A stretch of DNA of 11,042 bases from a virus. The notes under the pieces are model-generated. The model saw nothing but the letters and a program-made list of their open reading frames with translations. It did not search any database and had not been told where the DNA came from. The stretch lies in the UHGV virus genome UHGV-0292601, one strand, 5' to 3'. Each line of letters begins with the position of its first letter. Positions within the stretch are counted from its first letter, which is position 1. This document shows positions 852-11,042 of this stretch, piece by piece. A program made the translations under genes and the position numbers.

Positions 852-3800
852 ATGGGTAAAGGCAGCAGTAAGGGGCATACCCCGCGCGAAGCGAAGGACA
901 ACCTGAAATCATCCCAGATGCTGAGCGTGATAGACGCCATCAGTGAAGGGCCGATTGAAGGTCCGGTGGACGGATTAAAAAGTGTGCTGCTGAACAGTAC
1001 GCCAGTGCTGGACAGTGAGGGGAATACCAATATCTCCGGCGTCACGGTGGTGTTCCGGGCAGGTGAGCAGGAGCAGACACCGCCGGAGGGATTTGAATCC
1101 TCCGGCTCCGAGACGGTGCTGGGTACGGAAGTGAAGTACGACACGCCGATTACCCGGACCATCACGTCTGCAAACATCGACCGTCTGCGCTTTACCTTCG
1201 GTGTGCAGGCACTGGTGGAAACCACCTCAAAGGGGGACCGGAATCCGTCGGAAGTCCGCCTGCTGGTTCAGATACAGCGTAACGGTGGCTGGGTGACGGA
1301 AAAAGACATCACCATTAAAGGCAAAACCACCTCGCAGTATCTGGCCTCGGTGGTGGTGGATAACCTGCCGCCGCGCCCGTTCAACATCCGGATGCGCAGG
1401 ATGACGCCGGACAGCACCACAGACCAGCTGCAGAACAAAACGCTCTGGTCGTCATACACCGAAATCATCGATGTGAAACAGTGCTACCCGAACACTGCAC
1501 TGGTCGGCGTGCAGGTGGACTCGGAGCAGTTCGGCAGCCAGCAGGTGAGCCGTAATTATCATCTTCGCGGGCGCATTCTGCAGGTGCCGTCGAACTATAA
1601 CCCGCAGACGCGGCAATACAGCGGTATCTGGGACGGAACGTTTAAGCCGGCATACAGCAACAACCCGGCCTGGTGTCTGTGGGATATGCTGACCCACCCG
1701 CGCTACGGCATGGGGAAACGTCTTGGTGCGGCGGATGTGGATAAATGGGCGCTGTATGTCATCGGCCAGTACTGCGACCAGTCAGTGCCGGACGGTTTTG
1801 GCGGCACGGAGCCGCGCATCACCTGTAATGCCTGGCTGACCACGCAGCGTAAGGCGTGGGATGTGCTCAGTGATTTCTGCTCGGCGATGCGCTGTATGCC
1901 GGTATGGAACGGGCAGACGCTGACGTTCGTGCAGGACCGACCATCAGATAAGGTGTGGATCTATAACCGCAGTAATGTGGTGATGTCGGATGATGGCGCG
2001 CCGTTCCGCTACAGCTTCAGCGCCCTGAAGGACCGCCATAATGCCGTTGAGGTGAACTGGATTGACCCGAACAACGGCTGGGAGACGGCGACAGAGCTTG
2101 TTGAAGATACGCAGGCCATTGCCCGTTACGGTCGTAATGTCACGAAGATGGATGCCTTTGGCTGTACCAGCCGGGGGCAGGCACACCGCGCCGGGCTGTG
2201 GCTGATTAAAACGGAACTGCTGGAGACGCAGACCGTGGACTTCAGCGTGGGCGCAGAAGGGCTTCGCCATGTACCGGGCGATGTCATTGAAATCTGCGAT
2301 GATGACTATGCCGGTATCAGCACCGGTGGTCGCGTGCTGGCGGTGAACAGCCAGACCCGGACGCTGACGCTCGACCGTGAAATCACGCTGCCATCCTCCG
2401 GTACCACGCTGATAAGCCTGGTTGACGGAAGTGGTAATCCGGTCAGCGTGGAGGTTCAGTCCGTCACCGACGGACTTAAGGTGAAAGTGAACCGGGTTCC
2501 TGACGGCGTTGCAGAATACAGTGTGTGGGGGCTGAAGTTGCCGACGTTGCGTCAGCGCCTGTTCCGCTGTGTGAGTATCCGTGAGAACGATGACGGCACG
2601 TATGCCATCACTGCCGTGCAGCATGTACCGGAAAAAGAAGCCATCGTGGATAACGGGGCGCACTTTGACGGCGACCAGAGCGGCACGGTGAATGGTGTCA
2701 CGCCGCCAGCGGTGCAGCACCTGACCGCCGAAGTCACCGCAGACAGCGGGGAATATCAGGTGCTGGCGCGCTGGGACACGCCGAAGGTGGTGAAGGGCGT
2801 GAGCTTCCTGCTCCGTCTGACCGTAACAGCGGATGACGGCAGTGAGCTGCTGGTCAGCACGGCCCGGACGACGGAAACCACATACCGCTTCACGCAACTG
2901 GCGCCAGGGAACTACAGGCTGACAGTCCGGGCGGTAAATGCGTGGGGGCAGCAGGGCGATCCGGCGTCGGTATCGTTCCGGATTGCCGCCCCGGCAGCGC
3001 CGTCGCGGATTGAGCTGACGCCGGGCTATTTTCAGATAACCGCCACGCCGCATCTTGCCGTTTATGACCCGACGGTACAGTTTGAGTTCTGGTTCTCGGA
3101 AAAGCGGATTACCGATATCAGGCAGGTTGAAACCACAGCCCGCTATCTTGGTACGGCGCTGTACTGGATAGCCGCCAGTATCAATATCAAACCGGGCCAT
3201 GATTATTACTTTTATATCCGCAGTGTGAACACCGTTGGCAAATCGGCATTCGTGGAGGCCGTCGGTCGGGCGAGCGATGATGCGGAAGGTTACCTGGATT
3301 TTTTCAAAGGCAAGATAACCGAATCCCATCTCGGTAAAGAGCTGCTGGAAAAAGTTGATCTGACGGAGGATAACGCCAGCAGACTGGATGAGTTTTCGAA
3401 AGAGTGGAAGGACGCTAACGATAAATGGAATGCCATGTGGGGCGTCAAAATTGAGCAGACCAAAGACGGCAAACATTATGTCGCGGGTATTGGCCTCAGC
3501 ATGGAGGACACGGAGGAAGGCAAGCTGAGCCAGTTTCTGGTTGCCGCTAACCGTATCGCGTTTATTGACCCGGCAAACGGGAATGAAACGCCGATGTTTG
3601 TGGCGCAGGGCAACCAGATATTCATGAACGACGTGTTCCTGAAGCGCCTGACAGCCCCCACCATTACCAGCGGTGGCAGTCCTCCGGTATTTTCCCTGAC
3701 ATCAGACGGAAAGCTGACCGCTAAAAATGCGGATATCAGTGGTAGTGTGAATGCGAACTCAGGAACGCTCAACAATGTCACGATTAACCAGAACTGTACG

Positions 3801-4265
3801 ATTAAGGGCATGCTGGAGGCGACTCAGGTCAGAGGTGACTTCGTTAAAGCTGTATCCAAATCATTTCCGAAACAGGCTGGTACGTGGGGTAACACGGAAA
3901 CGCCAAACGGGACGGTTACAGTCACCATCAGCGATGATCATAACTTTGACCGTCAAATCATTATTCCGCCCATTATCTTTAACGGAATAGCGTATAGCGA
4001 TCCGGGAAGTGGTAATAACCCGGGAGGTACAAGATACACGGGTTATGGTTTTGAAGTTCGCAAAAACGGTGTATTAATCGCATCCAGAGAAACTAAAGGG
4101 GCCATTCCCGGTAGCTACAGTGCGGTTATTGATATGCCGAGTGGCAGGGGAAGCGTCACTCTGGAGTTTAAGGTTTTCCATAAAGGCAATCAATGGGCAG
4201 GTAATATCACCGACTGTACGGTGATTGTGACCAAAAAAGCCGCTTCCGGCATCAGTATTCGTTGA
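852..4265 (+). CDS. J: Tail tip / host specificity protein J (central tail fiber)
   Basis: 1137-aa ORF with a GAGG Shine-Dalgarno at 845-848. The N-terminus [20 protein letters not shown]… and most of the length are near-identical to lambda gpJ as I recall it. The last ~150 codons diverge and become AT-rich. Confidence 0.95.
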
Positions 4266-4334: not shown

Positions 4335-4934
4335 ATGCGTAAACTTTATGCCGCCATTTTGTCCGCAGCCATTTGTCTGGCCGTATCCGGTGCGCCTGCA
4401 TGGGCATCTGAACATCAGTCCACGCTGAGCGCGGGGTATCTTCATGCCCGGACCAACGTTCCCGGCAGTGATGATCTGAACGGGATTAACGTGAAATACC
4501 GTTATGAGTTTACGGATACGCTGGGGCTGGTGACGTCATTCAGCTATGCAGGAGACAAGAATCGCCAGCTGACCCGTTACAGCGATACCCGCTGGCATGA
4601 AGATTCCGTTCGTAACCGCTGGTTCAGCGTAATGGCGGGGCCGTCTGTGCGCGTGAATGAATGGTTCAGCGCGTATGCGATGGCGGGTGTGGCTTACAGC
4701 CGTGTGTCGACTTTCTCCGGGGATTATCTCCGCGTAACTGACAACAAGGGGAAAACGCACGACGTGCTGACCGGAAGTGATGACGGTCGCCACAGCAACA
4801 CGTCTCTGGCGTGGGGAGCTGGCGTGCAGTTTAACCCGACCGAATCCGTGGCCATTGATATTGCTTATGAAGGCTCCGGCAGTGGCGACTGGCGCACTGA
4901 CGGTTTCATCGTGGGTGTCGGTTATAAGTTCTGA
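4335..4934 (+). CDS. lom: Outer membrane protein Lom (Ail/Lom family beta-barrel)
   Basis: 199-aa ORF with a GAGAGG Shine-Dalgarno upstream. It has an N-terminal signal peptide (MRKLYAAILSAAICLAVSGAPAWA) and a C-terminal aromatic residue (…GVGYKF) typical of outer membrane beta-barrels. The sequence is near-identical to lambda Lom as I recall it. Confidence 0.93.
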   Translation: MRKLYAAILSAAICLAVSGAPAWASEHQSTLSAGYLHARTNVPGSDDLNGINVKYRYEFTDTLGLVTSFSYAGDKNRQLTRYSDTRWHEDSVRNRWFSVMAGPSVRVNEWFSAYAMAGVAYSRVSTFSGDYLRVTDNKGKTHDVLTGSDDGRHSNTSLAWGAGVQFNPTESVAIDIAYEGSGSGDWRTDGFIVGVGYKF

Positions 4935-4988: not shown

Positions 4989-4998
4989 TGGGGTGAAT

Positions 4999-6759
4999 AT
5001 GGCAGTTAAGATTTCAGGTGTACTGAAAGACGGCACAGGAAAACCGGTACAGAACTGCACAATCCAGCTGAAAGCAAAACGTAACAGCACCACGGTGGTG
5101 GTGAACACGCTGGCCTCAGAAAATCCGGATGAAGCCGGGCGTTACAGCATGGACGTTGAGTACGGTCAGTACAGCGTTATTCTGTTGGTGGAGGGATTCC
5201 CGCCGTCACATGCCGGGACCATCACCGTGTATGAAGATTCCCGACCCGGTACGCTGAATGATTTTCTCGGTGCCATGACGGAGGATGATGCCCGTCCGGA
5301 GGCTCTGCGCCGTTTTGAACTGATGGTGGAAGAGGTGGCGCGTAACGCGTCCGCGGTGGCACAGAACACGGCAGCCGCGAAGAAGTCAGCCAGTGATGCC
5401 GGCACATCTGCCAGTGAGGCGGCAACCCATGCGACTGATGCTGCAGGCTCAGCGCGTGCAGCCAGCACGTCAGCCGGACAGGCCGCGACGTCGGCTCAGG
5501 AGGCGTCTTCCAGCGCAGGAACGGCATCAACAAAGGCCACTGAAGCATCAAAAAGTGCTGCCGCTGCAGAGTCCTCAAAAAGCGCGGCGGCCACCAGTGC
5601 CGGTGCCGCGAAAACGTCAGAAACGAATGCTGCAGCGTCACAACAATCAGCAGCCACTTCTGCATCCACCGCGACCACGAAAGCGTCAGAAGCTGCCTCC
5701 TCAGCCCGGGATGCGTCGGCTTCAAAAGAGGCGGCAAAATCATCAGAAACGAACGCATCATCAAGCGCCAGTAGTGCCGCTTCCTCGGCAACGGCGGCAG
5801 GAAATTCCGCGAAGGCGGCAAAGACGTCTGAGACAAACGCTAAGTCCTCTGAAACGGCAGCGGAACAGAGTGCCTCAGCTGCGGCAGGCTCAAAAACAGC
5901 GGCTGCATCATCTGCCAGTGCCGCGTCAACAAGTGCCGGGCAGGCCTCAGCCAGTGCCACCGCCGCCGGAAAATCGGCAGAAAGTGCTGCATCGTCCGCT
6001 TCAACAGCCACAACGAAGGCTGGCGAAGCCGCTGTACAGGCCAGCGCAGCAGCGAGGTCTGCTTCCGCAGCGAAGACATCCGAGACGAACGCGAAAGCGT
6101 CGGAAACCAGCGCAGAATCCTCAAAAACGGCTGCCGCATCGTCCGCCAGTTCGGCGGCGTCATCGGCATCATCTGCGTCTGCTTCAAAAGATGAGGCGAC
6201 CAGACAAGCGTCCGCAGCGAAGGGCAGCGCCACGACAGCATCCACGAAGGCGACAGAGGCAGCTGGCAGTGCGACGGCGGCAGCACAGAGCAAAAGTACG
6301 GCGGAATCCGCGGCAACGCGCGCCGAGACAGCGGCAAAACGGGCAGAGGATATTGCATCCGCCGTGGCGCTTGAGGATGCGAGCACGACGAAAAAGGGGA
6401 TAGTACAGCTCAGCAGTGCGACCAACAGCACTTCCGAGTCACAGGCGGCAACGCCAAAAGCCGTTAAGGCCGCGTATGACCTGGCTAACGGGAAATACAC
6501 CGCACAGGATGCAACGACAGCACAGAAAGGGATAATCCAGCTAAGCAGCGCGACCAACAGCACATCTGAAACGCTTGCCGCGACACCAAAGGCAGTAAAA
6601 ACAGCCTATGACAATGCTGAGAAACGTCTGCAGAAAGATCAGAACGGTGCGGATATCCCTGGCAAAGACACCTTTACGAAAAATATTGGTGCCTGCCGTG
6701 CCTTCGGTGGGTCAGTAAGCACAACAACAGGAAACTGGACGACTGCACAGTTTATCTAG
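4999..6759 (+). CDS. stf: Side tail fiber protein Stf, N-terminal and shaft part (ends at an in-frame TAG)
   Basis: MAVKISGVLKDGTGKPVQNCTIQLKA… matches the lambda Stf N-terminus. The ORF track starts at GTG 4993, but ATG 4999 gives the lambda-like start. A long Ala/Ser/Thr-rich shaft is followed by two copies of the conserved GI(V/I)QLSSATNSTSE…ATPKAVK tail-fiber repeat. The frame stops at TAG 6757-6759 and reopens immediately in the same frame. Confidence 0.85.
   Translation: MAVKISGVLKDGTGKPVQNCTIQLKAKRNSTTVVVNTLASENPDEAGRYSMDVEYGQYSVILLVEGFPPSHAGTITVYEDSRPGTLNDFLGAMTEDDARPEALRRFELMVEEVARNASAVAQNTAAAKKSASDAGTSASEAATHATDAAGSARAASTSAGQAATSAQEASSSAGTASTKATEASKSAAAAESSKSAAATSAGAAKTSETNAAASQQSAATSASTATTKASEAASSARDASASKEAAKSSETNASSSASSAASSATAAGNSAKAAKTSETNAKSSETAAEQSASAAAGSKTAAASSASAASTSAGQASASATAAGKSAESAASSASTATTKAGEAAVQASAAARSASAAKTSETNAKASETSAESSKTAAASSASSAASSASSASASKDEATRQASAAKGSATTASTKATEAAGSATAAAQSKSTAESAATRAETAAKRAEDIASAVALEDASTTKKGIVQLSSATNSTSESQAATPKAVKAAYDLANGKYTAQDATTAQKGIIQLSSATNSTSETLAATPKAVKTAYDNAEKRLQKDQNGADIPGKDTFTKNIGACRAFGGSVSTTTGNWTTAQFI
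5341..6390 (+). repeat. Ala/Ser/Thr-rich low-complexity coding repeats in the Stf shaft
   Basis: Degenerate reiteration of units such as AAKTSETNA, SSASSAASSA and TKATEAA at the protein level. The GC-rich GCN/TCN codon runs generate long spurious ORFs in other frames and on the - strand. Confidence 0.7.
6391..6612 (+). repeat. Tandem duplication of the tail-fiber repeat (two ~132-bp units)
   Basis: Unit 1 is 6391-6480 (KKGIVQLSSATNSTSESQAATPKAVKAAYD). Unit 2 is 6523-6612 (QKGIIQLSSATNSTSETLAATPKAVKTAYD). Confidence 0.8.
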
Positions 6760-6798
6760 TGGCTGGATTCTCAGGGAGCATTTAACCATCCCTACTGG

Positions 6799-8070
6799 AT
6801 GTGCAAGGGTTCCTGGTCTTATGGCAATAATAAAATCATTACTGATACTGACTGCGGTAATATTCATCTCGCCGGAGCTGTCATTGAAGTAATGGGGATA
6901 AAGTCAGCGATGACGATCCGCATTACCACACCGACCACCTCCACTGGTGGTGGAACAACTAACGCCCAGTTTACCTATATTAATCACGGAACAGATTATT
7001 CACCTGGCTGGCGAAGGGACTATAACTCCAGAAATAAGCCAACGGCATCAGAGATCGGGGCGTTACCGTCAGGTGGAACAGCAGTATCATCAGTTAATCT
7101 GGCTTCAAAAGGTCGGGTAACCGCGCTGACAGACAATACGCAGGGGGCAACAGGTCTTGAGTTATACGAGGTGTATAACAACGGATATCCAACAGCGTAT
7201 GGAAATATCATTCACCTGAAAGGGATGACAGCCGTTGGCGAAGGTGAGTTACTCATCGGCTGGAGTGGTACAAGCGGTGCTCATGCTCCGGCATTTATTC
7301 GTTCACGACGGGATACGACCGACGCAAACTGGTCGCCGTGGGCGCAGCTTTACACCTCGGCTCATCCTCCTGCAGAGTTTTATCCAGTCGGTGCACCAAT
7401 CCCGTGGCCATCAGATACCGTTCCGTCTGGTTATGCCCTGATGCACGGGCAGACTTTTGACAAATCTGCCTACCCGAAACTTGCAGCCGCTTATCCGTCA
7501 GGCGTGATCCCTGATATGCGTGGCTGGACGATTAAGGGCAAACCTGCCAGTGGTCGTGCCGTATTGTCTCAGGAACAGGACGGCATTAAATCGCACACCC
7601 ACAGCGCCAGCGCATCCAGTACGGATTTGGGGACGAAAACCACATCGTCGTTTGATTACGGCACTAAATCCACGAATAACACCGGGGCTCATACGCACAG
7701 TCTGAGCGGCTCTACAAGCTCGGCCGGAGCACACTCGCACGTTGATGGTCGCAGGTTTAATACAAGCACTTTTAAAGACACCTATCAGTATGGTTCTACA
7801 GCTGTCGGAAGTAACTCATACCAGGTACAAGGGGCGGTTGGTCTGGGCATTGGCACGATGGCGAATACGAACTCTGCTGGCGCGCATACCCACTCACTGT
7901 CCGGCACTGCTGCAAGCGCAGGTGCACACGCACATACTGTCGGTATTGGTGCTCATACGCACTCCGTTGCGATTGGTTCACATGGACACACCATCACCGT
8001 TAACGCTGCTGGTAACGCGGAAAACACCGTCAAAAACATCGCATTTAACTATATTGTGAGGCTTGCATAA
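6799..8070 (+). CDS. stf: Side tail fiber protein Stf, C-terminal part (same frame as 4999..6759; sense codons run from 6760)
   Basis: In frame with the upstream stf ORF ((6799-4993) is divisible by 3). The 13 codons from 6760 to 6798 contain no stop. The C-terminal ~230 aa (…[19 protein letters not shown]…GAHTHSLSG…[22 protein letters not shown]) match the lambda Stf C-terminus, including the His-X-His repeats. The stop TAA 8068-8070 overlaps the tfa ATG (TAATG). Confidence 0.8.
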
Positions 8071-8654
8071 TGACATTCAGAATGAGTGAACAAGCACGGA
8101 CCATAAAAATTTATAATCTGCTGGCCGGAACTAATGAATTTATTGGTGAAGGTGATGCATATATTCCGCCTCATACAGGTCTGCCAGCAAACAGTACCGA
8201 TATTGCACCACCAGATATTCCTGCTGGCTTTGTGGCTGTTTTCAACAGTGATGAGGCATCGTGGCATCTCGTTGAAGACCATCGGGGTAAAACGGTTTAT
8301 GACGTGGCTTCCGGCGACGCGTTATTTATTTCTGAACTCGGTCCGTTACCGGAAAATGTTACCTGGTTATCGCCGGAAGGGGAGTTTCAGAAGTGGAACG
8401 GCACAGCCTGGGTGAAGGATACGGAAGCAGAAAAACTGTTCCGGATCCGGGAGGCGGAAGAAACAAAAAACAGCCTGATGCAGGTAGCCAGTGAGCATAT
8501 TGCGCCACTTCAGGATGCTGTAGATCTGGAAATCGCAACGGAGGAAGAAACCTCATTGCTGGAAGCCTGGAAAAAGTATCGGGTGTTGCTGAACCGTGTT
8601 GATACATCAACTGCACCTGATATTGAGTGGCCTACGAACCCTGTCAGGGAGTAA
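8070..8654 (+). CDS. tfa: Tail fiber assembly protein Tfa
   Basis: 194-aa [57 protein letters not shown]… near-identical to lambda Tfa as I recall it. Its start overlaps the stf stop, consistent with translational coupling. Confidence 0.9.
8489..8610 (+). repeat. Direct repeat, copy 1 (tfa 3' region)
   Basis: About 120 bp matching 9538..9659 at an estimated 85% identity (for example TATTGCGCCACTTCAGGATGCTGTAGATCTGGAAATCGCAACGGAGGAAGAAA versus the same with one mismatch at 9547-9599). Confidence 0.85.
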
Positions 8655-8668
8655 TCATTGGGATTATG

Positions 8669-8701
8669 CCGCAGCACGTCTTAAGCAAGAACGTGCTGCG
8701 G
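8669..8701. terminator. Hairpin between the convergent tfa and methyltransferase genes (possible bidirectional terminator)
   Basis: Perfect 11-bp stem CCGCAGCACGT (8669-8679) / ACGTGCTGCGG (8691-8701) with an 11-nt loop. On the + strand a T6 run follows about 10 nt later (8712-8717). On the - strand it lies directly after the methyltransferase stop but has no U-tract. Confidence 0.4.
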
Positions 8702-8708
8702 TTGGATG

Positions 8709-9377
8709 CTATTTTTTCCCTGAAGCGGAAAACATTACTACAGTACCTTGAACCTTGGTTTTAACATTCTCGAAATGCTCTGAGAGTATATGTGTTAAGC
8801 CTTCTTCGGAATCTTTTGTGTTTGAAAAGATGCCTTTCTGATTGTAAATGCGCATCAGTTTTTGACCGAAGCTATTGTGCACAACTCCATCGCCAAGAAT
8901 TGTGGCTCCGTATAGAGTTCCATCGTCAGTTAAGGCCTGCGCCGCATTGCGTATTACACAGCTTTTTGTAGATATATTTCCAGGCAGGCAGTGAAGAAGG
9001 TAAAACATGGAAATGGAATCAAATTGACCATGTAACGCCGCGGGATAAGGTTCAAAAACATCATGGCTAATTTTATGTTTAATTTTTGATTCCCCAGCCC
9101 TTGTAGATGCCGCGTTCAGGCTAGCTTCGTTCAAATCCATTAAAGATATCAGACTACTCTCAGGTACGTGAGTAAGGTAAAACCCAGTTCCAACACCAAT
9201 ATCCAGATGGTTGTTACCTAAATGTTCCAGAAAGTGTGGAAGAAGGTGTTCCTTTGTAGGACATCCCCATGCAAGCCGATTTGATACTCCCAAAACCCAC
9301 CAGTCATAAAGCTTTAGGGTAAGTGGTGTGTAAATTTTAGCCCCATCATCTGTGTTTTTTTTCATTAATTTCACCAT
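8709..9377 (-). CDS. Class I (Rossmann-fold) SAM-dependent methyltransferase, likely small-molecule or protein methyltransferase; phage cargo (moron) gene
   Basis: 222-aa ORF with the motif order typical of this fold: motif I LDIGVGTGFY, an acidic residue ending beta-2 (LMDLNE), motif II FDSISMFYLLHCLP, and motif III LTDDGTLYGATIL. I see no DNA-methyltransferase DPPY or PC motifs. Its position between tfa and a tfa remnant recalls the putative methyltransferase ybcY between tfaD and tfaX in the E. coli K-12 DLP12 prophage; that equivalence is from memory and unverified. A GGTGA Shine-Dalgarno better serves the second ATG (codon 5, base 9365), so the true start may be there. Confidence 0.75.
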   Translation of the reverse strand: MVKLMKKNTDDGAKIYTPLTLKLYDWWVLGVSNRLAWGCPTKEHLLPHFLEHLGNNHLDIGVGTGFYLTHVPESSLISLMDLNEASLNAASTRAGESKIKHKISHDVFEPYPAALHGQFDSISMFYLLHCLPGNISTKSCVIRNAAQALTDDGTLYGATILGDGVVHNSFGQKLMRIYNQKGIFSNTKDSEEGLTHILSEHFENVKTKVQGTVVMFSASGKK

Positions 9378-9433
9378 GTTATAGTTTTATTTGTGAATTA
9401 AATCAATTATGGCGATGAATTACAAGGGGTTAA

Positions 9434-9739
9434 ATGCTGCCGCAACATAGCGATATTGAAATAGCCTGGTATGCTTCGATACAACAGGAGCCGAATGGCT
9501 GGAAGACCGTCACCACACAGTTCTACATCCAGGAATTCAGTGAGTATATTGCGCCACTGCAGGATGCTGTAGATCTGGAAATCGCAACGGAGGAAGAAAG
9601 ATCGTTGCTGGAGGCATGGAATAAATATCGGGTATTGTTGAATCGAGTTGATACATCAGTAGCTCTGGGTATGAAGCTGTTTGTAACTCATGTTACAGTA
9701 ACAGTCATTACTATCTCGAAGGTGCAAAATGTATATTGA
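9434..9739 (+). pseudogene. Truncated tail fiber assembly (tfa-like) remnant with an unrelated N-terminus
   Basis: 101-aa ORF whose central segment [38 protein letters not shown] duplicates Tfa residues encoded at about 8497-8610. The N-terminal 37 aa and the C-terminal tail show no Tfa similarity. An AAGGGG Shine-Dalgarno lies 5 nt upstream of the ATG, so it may still be translated. Confidence 0.55.
9538..9659 (+). repeat. Direct repeat, copy 2 (inside the tfa remnant)
   Basis: See copy 1. The two copies are in the same orientation and flank the - strand methyltransferase gene. Confidence 0.85.
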
Positions 9740-9847
9740 TTTGATATTTTATAAATTTACTTCGAATCTGGCACGTCAACTTTTGATTAAAGTAATATCA
9801 GTTTTCGGCGAAAAAAGGACCGTGTACATGAGACGATTTCATACAAT

Positions 9848-9863
9848 GGAAGGTGCGAACAAG
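9848..9863 (+). repeat. IS5 left terminal inverted repeat
   Basis: GGAAGGTGCGAACAAG; one mismatch to the reverse complement of the right end. Confidence 0.9.
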
Positions 9864-9870
9864 TTCCTGA

Positions 9871-10896
<1,026 letters not shown>

Positions 10897-11026
10897 AAAC
10901 TGGGGATAACGCCTTAAATGGCGAAGAAACGGTCTAAATAGGCTGATTCAAGGCATTTACGGGAGAAAAAATCGGCTCAAACATGAAGAAATGAAATGAC
11001 TGAGTCAGCCGAGAAGAATTTCCCCG

Positions 11027-11042
11027 CTTATTCGCACCTTCC
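11027..11042 (+). repeat. IS5 right terminal inverted repeat
   Basis: CTTATTCGCACCTTCC, the reverse complement of GGAAGGTGCGAATAAG. Confidence 0.9.

Follow-up and report, generated by a model that had tools for sequence, protein, structure and literature searches.

The side tail fibre of Ur-lambda (Stf, 774 aa) is encoded in the locus J-lom-stf-tfa; it begins with StfN and a proximal shaft, ends in a gp37-like tip, and its gene is followed by that for Tfa. The domain map comprises StfN (aa 1-91), a proximal coiled coil (aa 102-393), a hinge (aa 394-422) and then the distal coiled coil (aa 423-525), after which comes the receptor-binding domain (PMC12617516). Functional chimeras of lambda with P2 and other Stf proteins have been engineered by fusion at lambda residues R393 and S528 (PMC11338833), and the exchange of stf between unrelated phages has been called a "well documented case" (PMC3945230, with references to Montag 1989, to Haggard-Ljungquist 1992 and to Sandmeier 1992/1994). 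In lambda PaPa (orf-401 / orf-314), a frameshift in stf removes the side fibres and leaves viability unaffected (PMC3945230, PMC12617516). The fibres of the myoviruses P2 (gpH), P1 (gpS, Sv') and Mu (gpS') have other N-terminal attachment parts and other distal tips, and the C-, G- and P-segments of the Cin/Gin/Pin systems have alternative fibre C-termini between cix/gix inverted repeats, with a serine invertase next to them.

Here we analyse a stretch of 11,042 nucleotides of the virus genome UHGV-0292601 (the window), which the ORF map and Pfam scans assign to the distal tail part of a lambdoid prophage. Its stf agrees with that of Ur-lambda in locus, StfN, proximal shaft, gp37-like tip and the Tfa gene that follows, and differs from it in a longer proximal part and in that 247 aa of P2/P1/Mu-type modules stand in place of lambda aa ~399-529. 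One of these modules (module A, below) is shared with P2 gpH, P1 gpS and Mu gpS'; of the hallmarks of the Cin/Gin/Pin segments, neither inverted repeats (in 6000-9900) nor an invertase ORF was found. A collar domain with His-rich repeats is common to this fibre and to the T4 gp37 tip (2XGF), with the likeness to gp37 confined to the C-terminal tip. One small mutation interrupts the gene in its middle, as is also the case in lambda PaPa, the PaPa lesion being a frameshift and the present one a nonsense substitution. Intact alleles in E. coli (WP_137556693.1) and in the phages mEp460_ev081 and PhiR26_1 are collinear with it over 3081 nt at 94.7-99.6% identity, with equal module order and neighbours; they differ in having GAG at codon 587, and the isolated phages also have another tip patch (~60-67% identity at ~7690-7890). 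It is very likely that we are dealing with a standard mosaic stf allele in which a single private G-to-T change made Glu587 an amber codon, with no tie to a recombination junction.

Layout of the locus and its match to lambda Stf

The features of the window are as follows (positions in the window; strand where assigned; basis in brackets).

1-246: K, end only (ORF map)
144-791: I (ORF map)
852-4265: J (ORF map)
4335-4934: lom (PF06316)
4999..8070, + strand: stf, side tail fibre gene (translation; Pfam PF08400, PF03406 twice, PF07484)
4999..5400, + strand: StfN / phage_tail_N domain, aa 1-134, collar on the tail (PF08400, E 1.4e-71)
5341..6390, + strand: Ala/Ser-rich proximal shaft, lambda-like but longer (blastn against lambda)
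6374-6480 and 6506-6612, + strand: two Phage_fiber_2 repeats, 72% identical (PF03406 twice)
6640..7059, + strand: module A, aa 548-687, globular, of the P2 H / P1 Sv' / Mu S' type, holding the amber codon (tblastn, PDB 8ju3)
6757..6759, + strand: amber TAG, codon 587 (GAG, Glu587, in all close relatives)
7042..7380, + strand: module B, aa 682-794 (tblastn 64%, PHROG)
7381..8067, + strand: distal tip of the lambda / T4 gp37 type, aa 795-1023, with collar domain and His-rich needle; receptor-binding region (PDB 2xgf)
7668..7932, + strand: hypervariable patch in the tip (59-64% identity or unalignable at ~7690-7890 in most relatives)
8070..8654, + strand: tfa, tail-fibre assembly chaperone, intact (PF02413, E 3.5e-45; the lambda match spans tfa)
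8709-9377, - strand: SAM-dependent methyltransferase (Pfam scan)
9434-9739: tfa remnant, 101 codons (PF02413, E 9e-18)
9848-11042: IS5, complete, 1195 bp

The stf gene lies 3' of J and lom and directly 5' of tfa, an order common to E. coli OkiPb01681, mEp460_ev081 and lambda. In a translation of 4993-8073, its frame runs from ATG at 4999 to TAA at 8068-8070 and is open except for a single in-frame TAG; the full coding capacity is 1023 aa, of which the amber codon leaves a 586-aa N-terminal product. The StfN domain, the position before the Tfa gene and the gp37-like tip are those of a lambda-type side tail fibre gene; the interrupted frame is not. Homologues of solved structure were found for StfN, for the Phage_fiber_2 repeats together with module A, and for the tip: aa 1-94 align with the 94-aa chain 'Tail fiber protein' of PDB 9e7m (E 1.3e-51), in our reading Ur-lambda StfN, the fibre repeat aligns with Mu S (5yvq), aa 538-695 with PDB 8ju3 (Mu S', gp52; E 6e-85), and aa 794-1023 with PDB 2xgf (T4 gp37 tip; E 1.4e-86), with PF07484 on aa 798-845. 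Among the PDB matches, the Ala/Ser shaft and module B had no solved homologue.

The first-pass annotation had described Stf as a mosaic with lambda-like ends around a non-lambda middle, and the comparison with lambda confirms this in both DNA and protein. Matches to lambda DNA (J02459, blastn) cover 4993-5906 (87% identity), 6214-6469 (78.5%), 6506-6599 (as a second copy of the repeat) and 7390-8659 (82.5%), and there is no match to it at 6600-7389. Against the 774-aa Ur-lambda-type Stf (KT232076), window aa 1-326 correspond to lambda aa 1-326 at 84% identity, aa 343-547 to lambda aa 231-398 at 48%, and aa 795-1023 to lambda aa 530-774 at 71%; for aa 548-794 (nt 6640-7380) the protein comparison gave no counterpart in lambda aa 399-529. 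The lambda-like start had been put at ~110 aa, which was right as to its kinship and too short as to its extent, since the likeness runs to aa 326 and, more diverged, to ~547; the lambda-like end, put at ~230 aa, comes to ~229 aa. The foreign region had been taken to begin at the amber codon. Lambda similarity is indeed lacking there; however, the start of the region is at ~6600-6665 instead of 6760, and its end at ~7349-7390.

The N-terminal part and shaft are 149 aa longer than in lambda (window aa 1-547 against lambda aa 1-398), which bears out the earlier impression of an extended shaft. The first two lambda blocks (4993-5906 and 6214-6469) abut in lambda at 20550-20557, so that the window has 307 extra nt at 5907-6213, in addition to the duplicated Phage_fiber_2 repeat; no tandem repeats were found in the shaft by TRF. 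From the lambda domain map, the exchanged part corresponds to the lambda hinge and distal shaft, and the engineered chimeras, with their fusion points at R393 and S528, were joined at these same natural module borders (lambda aa ~398 and ~529).

The region after the amber codon is AT-richer than its surroundings, as had been noticed, with a GC content of 0.46-0.48 in the middle, whereas the shaft has 0.62 and the tip 0.53. We considered whether this marks a compositional island or a recent import. The drop is real, yet GC at third codon positions is nearly constant (module A 0.486, shaft 0.526, tip 0.507), and the drop is therefore no evidence for recent import. The AT-richness of the middle largely reflects amino-acid composition, namely the Ala (GCN) codons upstream.

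It should be noted that the Ala/Ser shaft also contains long ORFs of 204-355 aa in other frames (5393-6403 on the + strand, 5496-6563 and 5222-5836 on the - strand). These are almost certainly artefacts of the GCN-rich composition, like lambda orf206b opposite stf.

The non-lambda middle and the distribution of the allele

The DNA at 6600-7390 matches P2 H (78% nucleotide identity) and P1 Sv' (74%), as well as P7, D108/Mu S' and others. The marks of the P2 H / P1 S / Mu S family of fibre modules are present: a Phage_fiber_2 repeat and, after it, the conserved 'QNGADIPGKDTFTKNIGA...NHPYWMCK' module. The Phage_fiber_2 motif is common to the fibres of lambda, P2, P1 and Mu, and the 5' module border lies at it or just after it. 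With P2 H there is a collinear match of 305 aa (window aa 384-687 to H aa 180-483, 68.5% identity), with no break at the lambda junction or at the amber codon. Module A (aa 544-687) is 80.6% identical to P1 Sv' in tblastn; over aa 548-634 the identity to P2 H and P1 Sv' reaches 86-87%, and the alignment again continues through the amber codon. Module B (aa 682-787) has 64% identity to a stretch of the P1 C-segment that lies immediately within each of its two cix sites (3429-3749 and 7406-7086 of the P1 record). The order of the two is A-B in the window versus B-A in P1, and the PHROG matches divide between two sub-modules along the same A/B split. An origin of the middle in T-even gp37 was considered and rejected: it is the C-terminal tip that resembles gp37 (2xgf, aa 794-1023), whereas the middle matches P2, P1 and Mu. 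The sole link of the middle to the long-tail-fibre distal-subunit family is a weak PHROG match (E 8e-11).

This arrangement is found in many E. coli genomes. The 3081 nt of stf are collinear in 636 of 5,426 complete E. coli genomes at a coverage of at least 80%. The best of these, OkiPb01681, which is also the closest complete genome, has the same gene order as the window, followed by ompT and envY; its stf is 99.6% identical (12 mismatches in 3081 nt), and an intact orthologue, WP_137556693.1, is annotated at the equivalent coordinates as a 1023-aa CDS. The isolated phages mEp460_ev081 and PhiR26_1 cover 100% of the query at ~94.7% identity, and both are likewise annotated with an intact 1023-aa fibre. 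The comparisons thus indicate an ordinary, widespread mosaic allele of E. coli lambdoid prophages and not a new recombinant. Such mosaicism is of a known kind and already documented, and the sole peculiarity of this copy is one private nonsense mutation.

Alignments against lambda, P2, P1 and lambdoid phages revealed recurrent break-points at ~6600-6665, ~7035-7060, ~7349-7390 and on the flanks of the tip patch (~7670-7930); no recurrent border falls at 6757 in the same comparisons. For example, the phages PhiR34_1, Turner and Chlobot share 4993-6480 and the sequence from 7349 onward and have a different middle, with junctions at 6659-6665 and 7349.

We also mapped identity in 100-nt bins. In ~90 IMG/VR relatives, which were picked by an exact 43-mer around the amber site and are therefore biased to alleles sharing the middle, the middle was the most conserved part (98-100%), compared to 89-97% in the shaft. 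The tip patch at 7668-7932 is the real hot spot of variation among these relatives, and presumably the determinant of specificity. The patch allele of the window occurs in 262 complete E. coli genomes at a coverage of at least 80%, with 199 records at an identity of at least 99%; none of the isolated phages in the collection exceeds ~67% identity to it. The segment that is foreign with respect to lambda is the most conserved part of the gene among these relatives, and variation in host range would be concentrated in a tip patch of ~260 nt. The gene illustrates cleanly how enterobacterial tail fibres are known to be built from modules.

The amber codon and its possible origins

At 6757 the window has T where OkiPb01681 has G, one of the 12 differences between the two, and this change turns GAG (Glu587) into TAG. 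A 63-mer centred on the codon retrieved 675 E. coli records, each with at least one mismatch, and the exact TAG-bearing 63-mer had no match in the 5,426 E. coli genomes. When a 43-mer with N at 6757 was used, G was found in 93 of 93 IMG/VR occurrences, and the unbiased E. coli search agrees with this set on the amber site. The exact TAG version was absent from GTDB species representatives and JGI metagenomes, and an exact-protein look-up gave no record of a gene for the 586-aa truncated product. When the sequences were compared column by column, T6757 alone was private to the window, both in the 791-nt middle and in the whole of stf-tfa (4999-8654), and both flanks of codon 587 are identical to the majority haplotype. 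Among distant homologues the codon is GAA in P1 Sv' and GAC in P2 H, and the residue is Ser in Mu S' (8ju3). A small gene-conversion patch around the amber codon was considered, as three of the 12 differences (6651, 6757 and 6826) form a cluster; it was rejected, since the window carries the majority allele at 6651 and 6826, where it is OkiPb01681 that is odd. Taken together, these comparisons identify the amber codon as a recent private point nonsense mutation (or a base-call error) that arose inside a conserved folded module, later than the assembly of the mosaic.

The parenthesis in the preceding sentence deserves attention because a one-base difference in a single assembly looks alike whether it is a mutation or an error. 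If 6757 were G in truth, stf would encode an intact 1023-aa fibre of the relatives' design. The uniqueness of T6757 within stf-tfa fits such an error, as does the exact coincidence of the window's last base with the outer end of IS5, which suggests that a draft contig broke off at this repeat. However, 6757 lies in neither a homopolymer nor any other error-prone context, substitution errors are rare in consensus assemblies, and prophage fibre genes commonly carry nonsense mutations, with lambda PaPa as a precedent for a lesion in this gene. We therefore regard an error of sequencing or assembly as unlikely.

A good deal less probable are readings in which the truncated state serves or spares the phage: that loss of the fibre is adaptive, as a natural parallel to lambda PaPa with a lower adsorption rate being advantageous in structured environments; that the 586-aa fragment of StfN and shaft still assembles with the tail, forming a stub blind to the receptor; or that an amber suppressor of the host rescues the gene. 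Beyond the undamaged remainder of stf, nothing in the sequence provides a basis for them.

It is also very doubtful that the stop is tolerated in its own right, whether by a suppressor tRNA, by leaky read-through, or by a split of the fibre into 586 aa and a 423-aa product restarted at ATG 6799. The downstream frame is fully open and free of further private mutations, and the ATG lies 39 nt past the stop, as would be expected in these cases. A conserved stop would be the mark of programmed read-through or recoding, however, and it was found in 0 of 93 IMG/VR and 0 of 675 E. coli sequences, with sense codons in P1, P2 and Mu; since no relative keeps the stop, it is not programmed. No tRNA was found in the window. 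A restart at ATG 6799 is itself unlikely, because the sole Shine-Dalgarno-like motif, GGGAG, is too distant at ~19-23 nt upstream and the C-terminal fragment would lack the StfN tail-attachment domain.

The weakest alternative is that of the first-pass annotation, which placed the amber codon at or near the recombination junction and suggested that the exchange had created it or carried it in: the codon is ~100-160 nt from the 5' border of the non-lambda block, but it lies 92-157 nt (31-52 codons) inside that block, identical junctions occur with GAG in hundreds of genomes, the candidate donor families carry sense codons at the site, the flanks match the majority haplotype, P2 H is collinear across it, and a full-length collinear alignment to a single fibre, the outcome that the annotation itself had named as refuting, exists in OkiPb01681, so that an origin with the junction is scarcely credible. 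Because the same mosaic is present with GAG in the relatives, the amber codon is unrelated to the junction.

Predicted consequences and neighbouring genes

Under the preferred reading, that of a private mutation in a common allele, fibre modules would have been exchanged long ago, in the well-documented manner, at borders marked by conserved motifs, to give the mosaic, which was then inherited as a unit. The resulting fibre would consist of the StfN collar, an extended Ala/Ser shaft, two Phage_fiber_2 repeats, a module pair of the P2 H / P1 S / Mu S' type and a gp37-type tip, with the Tfa gene following; the P2/P1/Mu-type pair would replace what in lambda (aa ~399-529) are the hinge and the distal coiled coil. 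In one genome, a G-to-T change would then have occurred at 6757 in module A, 31-52 codons past the nearest module border. Translation is predicted to stop after 586 aa, leaving a product made up of StfN, shaft and fibre repeats plus 39 module A residues. The truncated Stf would have neither the receptor-binding tip nor the Tfa-dependent C-terminal region; trimerisation and folding of the fibre C-terminus are thought to depend on Tfa. By analogy with the stf frameshift of lambda PaPa, particles, if made, would most likely be without functional side fibres and would depend solely on J. For annotation, this means a stf pseudogene of a common allele (nonsense at codon 587), rather than a new recombinant; the importance beyond annotation is little.

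Several further observations were made in the window. Up to window position 3821 (lambda 18474), J shares 95% identity with lambda J; beyond it DNA similarity is absent, and GC content falls from ~0.6 to ~0.47 in its C-terminal part (3822-4265). From the sequence, J also appears to be mosaic, with a different module as its last ~148 aa (the receptor-binding end); with a non-lambda module at this end, the receptor is probably other than LamB. At the I/J junction, positions 755-983 hold 13 of the 18 window-private bases in a comparison with 24 aligned relatives. This cluster looks like a short patch from another lineage, not scattered mutation.

On the 3' side, a direct repeat of 87% identity joins the 3' end of tfa (8478-8609) and the tfa remnant (9527-9658), and the minus-strand methyltransferase gene (8709-9377) separates the two copies. 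We take this layout of tfa, methyltransferase and tfa remnant to resemble tfaD-ybcY-tfaX of K-12 DLP12. The left inverted repeat of IS5, GGAAGGTGCGAAC, begins at 9848, and the right inverted repeat ends at the final base of the window; where the window has IS5, relatives have, from ~9846, an alpha/beta hydrolase gene, ompT and envY.

An invertible-segment mechanism was considered for the region and rejected, because 6000-9900 contains no inverted repeats and no invertase ORF, and the tfa remnant is a direct repeat. In phage mEp460_ev081, a serine recombinase (invertase-like; record positions 6751-7341) lies directly 3' of tfa, the place occupied in the window by the methyltransferase gene. Some members of this stf family may have, or may have had, an invertible fibre segment.
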